The position numbers and the translations under genes were made by a program. Under the pieces are notes generated by a model. It was not told where the DNA came from. It did no database searches and worked only from the letters and a program-made list of their open reading frames with translations. 64,000 nucleotides of DNA, taken from assembly GCF_003018255.1 (NCBI RefSeq), contig NZ_CP027440.1; one strand, given 5' to 3'. Below, piece after piece: positions 10,310 to 39,931 of the stretch. The stretch's first letter is position 1; the number at the start of each line of letters is the position of its first letter. This stretch comes from Escherichia coli (GTDB taxonomy: Bacteria; Pseudomonadota; Gammaproteobacteria; Enterobacterales; Enterobacteriaceae).

Positions 10310-10334
10310 ACAGAAATAAAGAGCTGACAGAACT

Positions 10335-10631
10335 ATGTTCGAACAACGCGTAAATTCTGACGTACTGACCGTTTCTACCGTTAACTCTCAGGATCAGGTA
10401 ACCCAAAAACCCCTGCGTGACTCGGTTAAACAGGCACTGAAGAACTATTTTGCTCAACTGAATGGTCAGGATGTGAATGACCTCTATGAGCTGGTACTGG
10501 CTGAAGTAGAACAGCCCCTGTTGGACATGGTGATGCAATACACCCGTGGTAACCAGACCCGTGCTGCGCTGATGATGGGCATCAACCGTGGTACGCTGCG
10601 TAAAAAATTGAAAAAATACGGCATGAACTAA
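10335..10631 (+). CDS. fis: Nucleoid-associated DNA-binding protein Fis
   Basis: 98-aa [101 protein letters not shown]. Confidence 0.98.
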
Positions 10632-22781: not shown

Positions 22782-25686
<2,905 letters not shown>

Positions 25687-25860
25687 TCACAACCCGAAGA
25701 TGTTTCACTTCAGAGTTGCGAAAATTTGAGAGACTCACGAACAACTTTCGTTGTTCAGTGTTTCAATTTTCAGCTTGATCCAGATTTTTAAAGAGCAAAA
25801 CTTCGCAGTGAACCTTTGCAGGTACACTCTGAAGTATTTTTTATTTAATCACTACAGAGA

Positions 25861-26123: not shown

Positions 26124-27665
<1,542 letters not shown>

Positions 27666-27789
27666 AAAAGTTTGATGCTCAAAGAATTAAACTTCGTAAT
27701 GAATTACGTGTTCACTCTTGAGACTTGGTATTCATTTTTCGTCTTGCGACGTTAAGAATCCGTACCTTCGAGTGCCCACACAGATTGTC

Positions 27790-27809
27790 TGATAAATTGT
27801 TAAAGAGCA
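27790..27809 (-). promoter_or_regulatory. rrn leader boxA antitermination element
   Basis: Reverse complement reads TGCTCTTTAACAATTTATCA; positions checked against an ORF frame. Confidence 0.8.
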
Positions 27810-27849
27810 GTTGCGACGCGGCTTTCAGCTCACTGTCGCGAGGTGGCGT

Positions 27850-27877
27850 ATATTACGCTTTCCTCTTTCAGAGTCAA
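27850..27877 (-). promoter_or_regulatory. rrnD P2 promoter
   Basis: Minus strand: -35 TTGACT (27877-27872), 16-bp spacer, -10 TAATAT (27855-27850). Confidence 0.75.
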
Positions 27878-27957
27878 CCCCGAATTTCAGGATTTTTTCT
27901 CTTTGTTGTTACGACCATCTTGTGAAGTGTTTCACGTTGTCGTCTCAACGGAGGCGC

Positions 27958-27985
27958 ATTATAGGGATCCCAATTTTTTGCACAA
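27958..27985 (-). promoter_or_regulatory. rrnD P1 promoter core
   Basis: Minus strand: -35 TTGTGC (27985-27980), 16-bp spacer, -10 TATAAT (27963-27958), GC discriminator GCGCC; A/T-rich tract upstream (27986-28080) fits the UP element/Fis-site region. Confidence 0.75.
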
Positions 27986-28137
27986 GTACTTTTTTGATCT
28001 TTTTTTCTGTTTGTTGCTTTTTCACCCTTTTTGCTGCATTCGCACACAAAACGGTGCTTTTTTGCATGCTAAAAGACTTGCACAAGGCCAATAATGCACC
28101 CAAAGTCATTAGTAAATCATTTATTGTTGAGGTGAGT

Positions 28138-28692
28138 ATGTCTGATGTTTTACGCCCATACCGCGATCTTTTTCCACAAATCGGCCAGCGCGTAATGATC
28201 GACGATAGCAGCGTCGTGATTGGTGACGTTCGTCTGGCTGATGATGTGGGGATCTGGCCGCTCGTTGTGATTCGTGGAGATGTACATTATGTACAGATCG
28301 GAGCACGCACCAATATCCAGGATGGCAGTATGTTGCATGTCACTCATAAATCCTCGTACAACCCAGATGGCAACCCATTAACCATTGGCGAAGATGTCAC
28401 TGTTGGTCACAAGGTGATGCTCCACGGCTGCACCATTGGCAATCGAGTTTTGGTTGGGATGGGCTCAATTTTACTTGATGGCGCAATAGTAGAAGATGAT
28501 GTGATGATTGGTGCGGGTAGCCTGGTCCCACAAAATAAACGGCTGGAGAGCGGATATCTGTATCTCGGTAGCCCCGTCAAACAGATCCGCCCGTTAAGTG
28601 ATGAAGAGAAGGCTGGGTTACGCTATTCCGCGAAGAATTACGTGAAATGGAAGGACGAATATCTGGATCAGGGTAACCAGACCCAACCTTGA
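28138..28692 (+). CDS. yrdA: Hexapeptide-repeat (gamma-carbonic-anhydrase-like) protein YrdA
   Basis: 184 aa from ATG 28138 (MSDVLRPYRDLF); left-handed beta-helix repeats; ORF-track start 27811 runs through the rrnD promoters. Confidence 0.92.
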   Translation: MSDVLRPYRDLFPQIGQRVMIDDSSVVIGDVRLADDVGIWPLVVIRGDVHYVQIGARTNIQDGSMLHVTHKSSYNPDGNPLTIGEDVTVGHKVMLHGCTIGNRVLVGMGSILLDGAIVEDDVMIGAGSLVPQNKRLESGYLYLGSPVKQIRPLSDEEKAGLRYSAKNYVKWKDEYLDQGNQTQP

Positions 28693-38941: not shown

Positions 38942-39931
38942 TTACTCGTCAGCGATGCTTGCCGGTGGCCAGTTTTCCAGGCGCATGCCCAGAGACAGTC
39001 CACGGGAAGCCAGCACGTCTTTAATCTCAGTAAGAGATTTTTTACCAAGGTTAGGCGTTTTAAGGAGCTCAACCTCGGTACGCTGTACCAGATCACCGAT
39101 ATAGTGGATAGCTTCTGCTTTAAGGCAGTTAGCAGAGCGGACAGTCAATTCCAGATCGTCAACAGGGCGCAGCAGGATCGGATCGAACTCTGGTTTCTCT
39201 TCTTTCACTTCAGGCTGACGTACATCACGTAAGTCAACGAAAGCTTCCAGTTGTTCAGCCAGAATGGTTGCCGCACGACGAATCGCCTCTTCAGGATCGA
39301 TTGTGCCGTTGGTTTCCATTTCGATGACCAGCTTGTCCAGGTCGGTACGCTGTTCTACACGCGCTGCTTCAACATTGTAGGCAATACGCTCCACAGGGCT
39401 GTAGCATGCGTCGACCAGCAGACGGCCGATTGGGCGCTCATCTTCTTCCGAATGAATTCGGGTAGAAGCCGGCACATAACCACGACCGCGCTGAACTTTG
39501 ATACGCATGCTAATAGACGCGTTCTCATCGGTCAGGTGGCAGATCACGTGCTGCGGCTTGACGATTTCGACATCACCGTCGTGGGTGATATCGGCTGCAG
39601 TCACAGGGCCAATGCCAGATTTATTCAAGGTAAGAATAACTTCATCTTTGCCCTGAACTCTCACCGCCAGCCCTTTCAGGTTGAGCAGGATTTCCAGGAT
39701 ATCTTCCTGAACGCCTTCTTTGGTGCTGTACTCATGTAGTACACCATCAATCTCAACCTCGGTCACCGCGCAACCCGGCATCGATGAGAGCAGAATACGG
39801 CGCAGTGCGTTACCCAGAGTATGGCCAAAGCCACGCTCTAAAGGCTCAAGGGTCACCTTGGCGTGCGTCGAACTCACTTGCTCGATATCAACCAGGCGCG
39901 GTTTTAGAAACTCTGTCACAGAACCCTGCAT
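38942..39931 (-). CDS. rpoA: DNA-directed RNA polymerase alpha subunit
   Basis: 329-aa [51 protein letters not shown]. Confidence 0.99.

Follow-up and report, generated by a model that had tools for sequence, protein, structure and literature searches.

The rrnD P1-P2 control region of Escherichia coli and the divergent yrdA gene: a probable case of compact back-to-back promoters

The control region of an Escherichia coli rRNA operon and the start of the yrdA gene adjoin each other in the stretch of DNA studied here (64,000 nucleotides of contig NZ_CP027440.1, referred to below as the window). This arrangement raises the question of whether the A/T-rich DNA upstream of the rRNA promoter, with its UP element and Fis sites, doubles as the 5′ region of yrdA, so that yrdA expression might be tied to rRNA promoter activity and local supercoiling, as an original prediction made from this DNA had proposed. 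The presence of the rrnD control region beside yrdA is already known in substance; this is a textbook locus, and its correct reading matters little as it stands. The points considered below are where the yrdA promoter may lie, how its position relates to the elements that serve the rRNA promoter, and how far the arrangement has been kept in related bacteria.

The segment between positions 27500 and 28800 was found by megablast in 5425 of 5426 complete E. coli genomes, with at least 80% of the query covered at one place in 5399 of the 5426, and the features beneath the matches are annotated as 16S rRNA, yrdA and yrdB. Rfam models revealed a complete rRNA operon on the minus strand, whose order, 16S-tRNA-tRNA-23S-5S-tRNA-5S, is that of rrnD; the K-12 names of its tRNAs are ileU, alaU and thrV. 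The content and flanks specific for rrnD are present, i.e., Ile and Ala spacer tRNAs, a 5S-thrV-5S tail, and yhdZ and yrdA adjoining the operon. The neighbours in the best-hit strain agree with this assignment: yhdZ flanks one side, and the other has yrdA, yrdB, aroE and tsaC. The rrnD operon and yrdA are divergent and both leave the same 473-bp gap, where the part between 27986 and 28137 has a G+C content of 36%, compared to 50% for the whole window. The features of the two transcription units are as follows (positions are those of the window).

22782-25686, minus strand: 23S rRNA gene (Rfam)
25797..25785, minus strand: spacer boxA, TGCTCTTTAAAAA, between tRNA-Ala and 23S (sequence reading)
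26124..27665, minus strand: 16S rRNA gene of rrnD, equivalent to K-12 rrsD (Rfam SSU_rRNA_bacteria, 1577 bits, full length)
27666..27949, minus strand: rrnD leader, from the P1 start to mature 16S rRNA (sequence reading and K-12 alignment)
27809..27797, minus strand: leader boxA, TGCTCTTTAACAA, identical to K-12 (sequence reading)
27850..27877, minus strand: rrnD P2, with -35 TTGACT (27877..27872), a 16-bp spacer and -10 TAATAT (27855..27850), identical to K-12
27958..27985, minus strand: rrnD P1, with -35 TTGTGC (27985..27980), a 16-bp spacer containing GGGATCCC and -10 TATAAT (27963..27958)
within 27985..27950, minus strand: G+C-rich (GCGCC) P1 discriminator, GCGCCTCC, identical to K-12 rrnD, with the start G at 27949
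28129..28692, plus strand: yrdA, with Shine-Dalgarno (SD) sequence GAGGT (28129-28133), ATG at 28138-28140 and the stop codon ending at 28692 (RefSeq annotation)

As can be seen, the region contains the canonical tandem P1-P2 promoters, UP element, leader and boxA of E. coli rrnD, in divergent orientation to yrdA. Alignment of a 530-nt region with K-12 MG1655 rrnD revealed 13 substitutions and one 1-nt indel, none of them inside named elements, and all named rrnD elements are base-for-base identical to those of K-12 MG1655. P1, P2 and the leader boxA, which had been proposed on the minus strand, were each found by sequence reading at the expected coordinates. The second boxA-like sequence that had been noted in the 16S-23S spacer is present at exactly 25797..25785; the 5′ end of a match to the Rfam model StyR-44 (25694-25793) reaches into its 3′ part (25793..25785). 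The distance of about 150 bp between the P1 -35 element and the yrdA ATG was measured as 153 bp from the upstream edge of the hexamer, which corresponds to 189 bp from the P1 start.

A consensus promoter scanner returned P2 as the sole site; P1 was missed because its -35 element agrees with the consensus at just three of six positions. Hexamer scores obtained with a position weight matrix (PWM) were 10.5 for P1 and 11.3 for P2, while the 95th percentile of shuffled sequence was 10.8. Since these scores are only near the 95th percentile of shuffles, it is the identity with K-12 rrnD that vouches for both promoters. In P1, positions 27950-27971 and 27980-27986 show conservation of 80% or more across 24 other Enterobacteriaceae. 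In E. coli rrn operons, boxA is known to bind NusB/S10 and to bring about antitermination. Twenty-one related loci have a leader boxA with no more than two mismatches at 327-351 nt from the start of yrdA; in a few loci of Providencia, Arsenophonus and Vibrionaceae it is farther away, at 405-484 nt. A published RNase III leader cut, listed as "Intergenic (rrsD-yrdA)" at K-12 position 3428875 (PMC5371410), falls at about 27778 in the window according to our own coordinate conversion.

YrdA is a γ-carbonic-anhydrase-like hexapeptide-repeat protein that matches PDB entry 3tio, "Protein YrdA", with an E-value of 1.6e-120; its best NCBIfam match is gamma-CA, with a score below the cut-off. A longer, 293-aa ORF with a TTG start codon (27811-28692) was considered as the real yrdA and was ruled out by the conserved SD and ATG at 28138 and by the PDB protein.

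A sequence-only promoter search on the yrdA strand, by consensus scan and PWM, identified nothing that exceeds the shuffle background. The top plus-strand match to the σ70 PWM scored 5.0, compared to a median top score of 7.7 for shuffles. This match is our candidate for the yrdA core promoter.

28078..28106, plus strand: candidate yrdA core promoter, with -35 TTGCAC (28078-28083), a 17-bp spacer and -10 CAAAGT (28101-28106)

Since the PWM score is under the shuffle median, what makes the candidate credible is its conservation. Twenty other loci from Escherichia and related Enterobacteriaceae genera have the pattern TTGnnn-N17-CAAAGT at 36-41 nt before the ATG. In Serratia oryzae, TTGACT-N17-CAAAGT is located 48 nt before the yrdA ATG, and Cedecea and relatives have the variants CAGAGT and CACAGT in place of CAAAGT. 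The length of the spacer is constant (17 bp) while its sequence varies, which points to a promoter signature. Transcription from the candidate would be predicted to start at about 28111-28114, leaving a leader of about 25 nt. A partly conserved -10-like sequence, AATAAT (28090-28095), could be the real yrdA -10 element instead. Promoters of two other classes were rejected, a σE promoter because the 20-bp gap to the -10-like element is too long, and a σ28 promoter because of a poor -35 element and wrong spacing. No match to a yrdA start site was present in the supplements of Kim 2012 or among the entries listed in the supplements of Ettwiller 2016. A yrdA::lacZ fusion has been reported to be expressed from the "natural promoter"; the same work describes an antisense RNA inside yrdA, and mutating the antisense -10 hexamer CATAAT left yrdA expression unchanged (Dornenburg et al., PMC2912661).

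Nearly all Enterobacteriaceae genera have 138 bp between the P1 -10 element and the candidate yrdA -10 element (CA[ACG]AGT); the others have 136-140 bp, and Serratia has 141 bp. Unlike this constant distance, that between the candidate -10 element and the ATG varies from 36 to 41 nt. The constancy of the 138-bp spacing despite a variable yrdA leader suggests that a set distance separates P1 from the candidate promoter. Such strict spacing hints at something more than passive packing and would count against a simple packing view.

The function of UP elements has been established by the Gourse laboratory, and both the UP element and the Fis site at -71 are established to serve rrn P1 promoters. 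For scoring of Fis-like sites, 15-mers were compared with the degenerate consensus G-N2-Y-R-W5-Y-R-N2-C, which was taken from the Fis literature and used as a heuristic. The UP element and the predicted sites (centres relative to the P1 start; no strand is assigned to the sites) are listed below.

27989..28009, minus strand: A/T-rich UP element of P1 (-40 to -60), 24% G+C
28013..28027: predicted Fis-like site centred at -71, GTTGCTTTTTCACCC, 7/9, with an overlapping site centred at -67
28033..28047: predicted Fis-like site centred at -91, 5/9, about -72 from the predicted yrdA start
28086..28101: predicted Fis-like sites centred at -144 and -145, GGCCAATAATGCACC and GCCAATAATGCACCC, 7/9 each

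Three Fis-like sites with scores of at least 7 are present in the window, compared to 0.84 expected from shuffles. When sites scoring at least 5 were counted in 30 Enterobacteriaceae loci, a site at -71 was present in all 30, at -91 in 26, at -144 in 11 and at -145 in 7; the overlapping site at -67 occurred in 24 loci, and every other position in no more than 6. Nearly all remaining Enterobacterales have a Fis-like site at -71/-72, while an extra one at about -111 is found in Erwinia, Pantoea, Serratia and Providencia, and one at -144 or -145 also in Yersinia, Serratia and Arsenophonus. G28013 and C28027, which border a T-run, are each conserved at about 0.9, as are G28033 and C28047, whose interior is variable; for the -144/-145 site, the bordering G and C are just 0.4-0.8 conserved. 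Conserved end G and C with a free interior are what Fis recognition predicts, and in this respect the sites, themselves predicted, behave as expected. Within the UP element, positions 27990-28005 are nearly invariant across genera in alignments that included 24 other Enterobacteriaceae, and the GATC at 27996-27999 is present in 28 of 29 aligned species. The rrnD control region was reportedly footprinted by Hirvonen et al. in 2001. Gaal et al., who refer to Hirvonen et al. on the activation of rrnD P1 by Fis, treated the interval from -397 to -60 of rrnD P1 as the "Fis sites" region (PMC5110994). Besides the candidate yrdA promoter, that interval covers about 200 bp of the coding part of yrdA.

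In P1 coordinates, the candidate yrdA promoter spans -129 to -157, about 70 bp past the UP element, and overlaps neither the UP element (-40 to -60) nor the -71 and -91 Fis-like sites; the -144/-145 Fis-like sites fall within its spacer. The idea that the UP and Fis region is also yrdA 5′ DNA thus holds in part: the 189-bp gap does contain the UP element and conserved Fis-like sites, but the UP element is probably not part of the yrdA promoter as well, because the candidate promoter lies some 70 bp beyond it.

A scan for YrdA in one genome per species yielded 80 loci. Outside Pseudomonas, all loci whose upstream sequence exceeds about 210 nt contain a P1-like core, TATAATGCGCC (no more than two mismatches), which is oriented opposite to yrdA at a distance of 144-269 nt from its start; boxA and the 5′ end of 16S come after this core wherever the contig reaches. 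In draft assemblies, the contig nearly always stops 200-600 bp upstream of yrdA, as expected where a repeated rrn operon begins. The yrdA-rrn pairing is found in Enterobacteriaceae, Erwiniaceae, Pectobacteriaceae, Yersiniaceae, Morganellaceae, Vibrionaceae (four genera: Enterovibrio, Salinivibrio, Grimontia and Vibrio) and Aeromonas. An rrn operon near yrdA was absent from all ten Pseudomonas loci. Enterobacterales and Vibrionaceae retain the yrdA-yrdB-aroE-tsaC block. Aeromonas still has yrdA abutting an rrn promoter, although neither aroE nor tsaC was found within about 3 kb downstream of yrdA.

Alignments of the gap, given in yrdA-sense coordinates, contain footprint blocks at 27950-27971 (P1 discriminator, -10 element and GGGATCCC), 27980-27986 (P1 -35 element), 28077-28081 (CTTGC, conservation 0.7-0.9), 28091-28095 (ATAAT, about 0.7), 28101-28106 (CAAAGT, 0.7-0.9) and 28129-28133 (GAGGT, 0.9), the last followed by the ATG. 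What is new here is that the divergent yrdA-rrn pairing is kept in Enterobacterales, Vibrionaceae and Aeromonas, with Pseudomonas lacking it. Also new are the apparent footprints of the P1 core, the UP element, the predicted -71 and -91 Fis-like sites and the weak candidate yrdA promoter, and the near-invariant 138 bp between the putative yrdA -10 element and that of P1. We regard the deep yrdA-rrn linkage, the 138-bp spacing and the symmetric Fis-like sites as modest leads, short of discoveries.

We propose that, probably though by no means certainly, rrnD P1 stands back-to-back with yrdA's own weak σ70-type promoter, with Fis-like sites and the UP element between them. The yrdA gene would be transcribed from TTGCAC-N17-CAAAGT (28078-28106) with a start near 28112, about 163 bp from the P1 start at 27949. 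The DNA between the promoters would house the P1 UP element and a Fis-like array, with sites at -71 and -91 in E. coli and also at -111 in other families. To call the DNA "shared" would then mean mainly that it is compactly packed, as is the rule for all seven E. coli rrn operons. Wherever a rearrangement broke the gap, one of the two promoters would suffer, and this offers a simple reason for the long-kept gene pair. If yrdA is coupled to rRNA synthesis, the most likely routes would be the central Fis-like sites and the negative supercoiling behind polymerases leaving P1. The Fis-like centres 28020 and 28040, which are at -71 and -91 for P1, are at about -92 and -72 for the predicted yrdA start, i.e., midway between the two starts; use of Fis common to both promoters is geometrically possible. 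Since two predicted sites lie midway and a third overlaps the candidate spacer, Fis might either activate or occlude yrdA, and the sign of the effect is not readable from the sequence.

Whether the back-to-back promoters would also be functionally coupled is a separate matter, on which the same evidence can be read in several ways. A tentative possibility is that the Fis-like sites activate both promoters, while supercoils generated at P1 help to open the weak yrdA -10 element; yrdA output would then plausibly follow rRNA synthesis, growth rate and the level of Fis. It is from position -71 that Fis activates rrn P1, and one Fis-like site is located at -71 from P1 and another at about -72 from the predicted yrdA start, although this symmetry hangs on the prediction of that start. 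The poor -10 element (CAAAGT) is of the type expected to need help in opening, and Aeromonas retains the pairing although aroE and tsaC are no longer adjacent. The 138-bp spacing of the two -10 elements, invariant across genera, also speaks for activation of both promoters, but kinship and constraint on P1 alone can preserve it. The yrdA gene and rrnD may also be read as independent, tightly packed neighbours whose spacing is held by constraint on the P1 upstream region. We consider it doubtful that the pair forms an ancient, selected bidirectional module, with the 138-bp spacing, symmetric Fis sites and a deliberately weak yrdA promoter that would respond to Fis and to the supercoiling left behind by polymerases transcribing the rRNA genes. 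Published work describes YrdA as a protein whose level increases with spermine at pH 8.5 rather than as one linked to growth rate (PMC1274320), and this argues against activation in step with rRNA synthesis. A literature search on yrdA with Fis, growth rate or b3279 found no report of yrdA in fis mutants or versus growth rate. The opposite effect, in which Fis bound at -144/-145 and dense protein traffic upstream of P1 occlude the yrdA promoter, appears decidedly unlikely; it would make yrdA lowest at peak rRNA synthesis and let it rise as Fis vanishes in late growth. The best-scoring distal Fis-like 15-mers (28086-28101, 7/9) do lie inside the candidate yrdA spacer, and -144/-145 sites recur in many Enterobacteriaceae as well as in Yersinia, Serratia and Arsenophonus. 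The G and C flanks of these sites, however, are conserved at just 0.4-0.8, and the predicted site is a match to the consensus alone.

Two further alternatives concern the identity of the yrdA promoter itself. The CTTGC...CAAAGTC block could be a protein-binding site, either within the upstream activating region of P1 or for another regulator, with the yrdA promoter elsewhere, e.g., at AATAAT (28090-28095). The low PWM score and the 0.7 conservation of ATAAT are in line with this, as is the fact that GTGAGA-N17-GATAAT/AATAAT is the top match at the aligned position in Kluyvera, Pseudocitrobacter and Pluralibacter, and a constant distance to P1 is also what one expects of a P1 accessory site. 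In E. coli, moreover, GACTT (28075-28079) is the inverted 5-bp counterpart of AAGTC (28103-28107), but this repeat is not conserved beyond Escherichia and Citrobacter. We nevertheless find a binding site unlikely, given that TTG and A2/T6 separated by an unvarying 17 bp are a signature of the σ70 family, and that the 36-41 nt between the block and the ATG fit a leader bearing an SD sequence. A σ32 heat-shock promoter for yrdA is highly improbable. ChIP-chip by Wade et al. (2006), as quoted in PMC2996942, listed a σ32 target at the yrdA promoter, and CTTGCA (28077-28082), followed after 15-16 bp by CCCAAAGT, loosely resembles CTTGAA-N14/15-CCCCATNT; the C-run here is CCCCC in K-12 and CACCC in the window. 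The two later papers discounted this target, as its probes map to repeated rrn DNA (PMC2996942; PMC3738151). Nor is the C-run conserved in other genera, which have ACC, GCC or ATC. We retain the weak σ70-type candidate at 28078-28106 as the probable yrdA promoter.

The close packing of rrnD P1 and yrdA has practical consequences, since mutations in the gap are easily mis-assigned. A published "yrdA -189" mutation coincides exactly with the rrnD P1 start. The σ32 ChIP "yrdA promoter" target, with its probes in repeated rrn sequence, was later discounted. Strains in which rrnD was altered by deletion or insertion 397 bp upstream of the P1 start (PMC5110994) also have yrdA and its promoter disrupted. 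If coupling were true, it would provide a growth-rate link for the widely conserved YrdA, a protein of unknown function, and the locus would be a natural test bed for supercoiling-mediated coupling beside the cell's strongest promoters. A bidirectional module, if true, would tie a γ-carbonic-anhydrase-like protein to ribosome synthesis.

For comparison, the upstream side of all seven K-12 rrn operons was inspected after each P1 had been located. The nearest neighbouring gene end and its distance from the P1 start are given below.

rrnH: end of gmhB, 77 bp, co-directional
rrnB: end of murI, 82 bp, co-directional
rrnA: end of hemG, 86 bp, co-directional
rrnG: end of clpB, 152 bp, co-directional
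rrnC: ATG of yieP, 189 bp, divergent
rrnD: ATG of yrdA, 189 bp, divergent
rrnE: ATG of purH, 331 bp, divergent

Since each of the seven P1 promoters has a neighbouring gene at 77-331 bp, sharing of upstream DNA is normal and rrnD is no exception; given these distances, DNA containing Fis sites belongs to or abuts the neighbouring gene in each K-12 rrn operon. The rrnB control region has Fis sites I-III at -71, -102 and -143 and a leader boxB-boxA-boxC antiterminator. Like rrnB, rrnD has the same TCCCTATAATGCGCC core with a 16-bp spacer, A/T-rich DNA between -40 and -60, a predicted Fis-like site centred at -71, P2 some 106 nt downstream, leader boxA TGCTCTTTAACAA and a second boxA in the 16S-23S spacer. 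It differs from rrnB in its P1 -35 element (TTGTGC) and start nucleotide (G), in its UP sequence, which contains GATC, and in the predicted distal Fis-like sites, which are at -91 and -144/-145 rather than at -102 and -143. It also differs in its neighbour: murI is co-directional with rrnB and ends 82 bp from the start, whereas yrdA is divergent from rrnD. In this respect rrnD-yrdA resembles rrnC-yieP, where P1 is likewise back-to-back with a protein gene at an identical 189 bp between the P1 start and the ATG, and rrnE-purH, which is divergent as well, though wider (331 bp). Coupling has been shown by experiment for the twin-domain pairs ilvY-ilvC and leu-500, while rrnD-yrdA is known here from sequence alone. 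Like these pairs, rrnD and yrdA are divergent, with predicted starts about 163 bp apart and one extremely active partner. A divergent neighbour that senses the supercoiling of a strong promoter or shares its activator is a known kind of mechanism.

The yrdA gene and an rrn P1 promoter are divergent neighbours in all Enterobacterales, Vibrionaceae and Aeromonas loci that contain sufficient upstream sequence (loci L002-L079 of the YrdA scan, one genome per species), an arrangement whose equivalent in the window spans positions 27949-28138. In Pseudomonas, the scan of YrdA loci revealed no divergent yrdA-rrn P1 adjacency. Neither aroE nor tsaC was found within ~3 kb downstream of yrdA in Aeromonas, and the adjacency of yrdA and rrn P1 is retained there despite the absence of these two genes from that region.

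Inspection of the DNA around rrnD P1 revealed two GATC (Dam) sites that are kept in most of the 29 aligned species:

27966-27969, GATC site within the P1 spacer, in GGGATCCC, kept in 25 of 29 species
27996-27999, GATC site at the centre of the UP element, kept in 28 of 29 species

As can be seen, the two sites, which are 30 bp apart, flank the P1 -35 hexamer. A hemimethylated GATC pair at this spacing could, speculatively, bind SeqA in principle. The alignment also contains two extra GATC sites, 10 bp apart (GATC-N6-GATC), in 17 of the 29 other Enterobacterales (for example, at the YrdA-scan loci L028, L030, L016 and L045). This pair is aligned to window positions 28034-28056, inside the region of the predicted Fis-like site centred at -91 from P1, and both of its sites have been lost in E. 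coli, E. albertii and Citrobacter.

The product of fis acts on Fis sites and that of rpoA on the UP element; both genes lie in the window (coordinates converted from L082, + 7499), which also contains the alpha and spc ribosomal protein operons and part of the S10 operon:

about 10324-10620, fis, ~17 kb from P1
about 38942-39931, rpoA

The 16S-23S spacer yielded an Rfam match whose 5′ end covers the 3′ portion of the spacer boxA:

25694-25793, minus strand, StyR-44 (Salmonella npcRNA 44), 106.9 bits, in the tRNA-Ala to 23S spacer

An antisense promoter was located within yrdA:

28286-28313, minus strand, TTGGTG-N16-CATAAT

Its CATAAT element is the sole CATAAT on the minus strand of yrdA, and the promoter matches the antisense RNA that Dornenburg et al. 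(2010; PMC2912661) described inside yrdA. The antisense transcript would head toward the yrdA promoter, the Fis-like sites and rrnD P1; no obvious terminator was seen between the antisense promoter and rrnD P1. At its other end, the yrdA coding region is convergent with that of yrdB, with a 25-nt overlap (28668-28692), and yrdA-yrdB is included as a convergent "excludon" in the list of PMC12288877.

A 293-aa ORF with a TTG start (27811-28692, plus strand) begins in the rrnD leader, crosses P2, P1 and the entire gap, and continues in frame into yrdA. It was rejected as the real yrdA, whose true start is the ATG at 28138; the ORF is a mechanical artefact that arises because no in-frame stop interrupts it.

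The rrnD-yrdA gap is mis-assigned to yrdA by variant callers. A copper-surface evolution study (PMC11960088) lists a mutation as "upstream (-189)" of yrdA, which by our coordinate arithmetic falls at the rrnD P1 start/discriminator (window position 27949). In a separate evolution study, a mutation within this gap lay in the rrnD discriminator.

In K-12, the P1 sequences of the remaining six rrn operons contain neither the UP-element GATC nor the spacer GGGATCCC, whereas both are present in rrnD P1. At the K-12 rrnC-yieP locus, 189 bp separate the P1 start from the ATG of the divergent gene yieP, the same distance as between rrnD P1 and yrdA.
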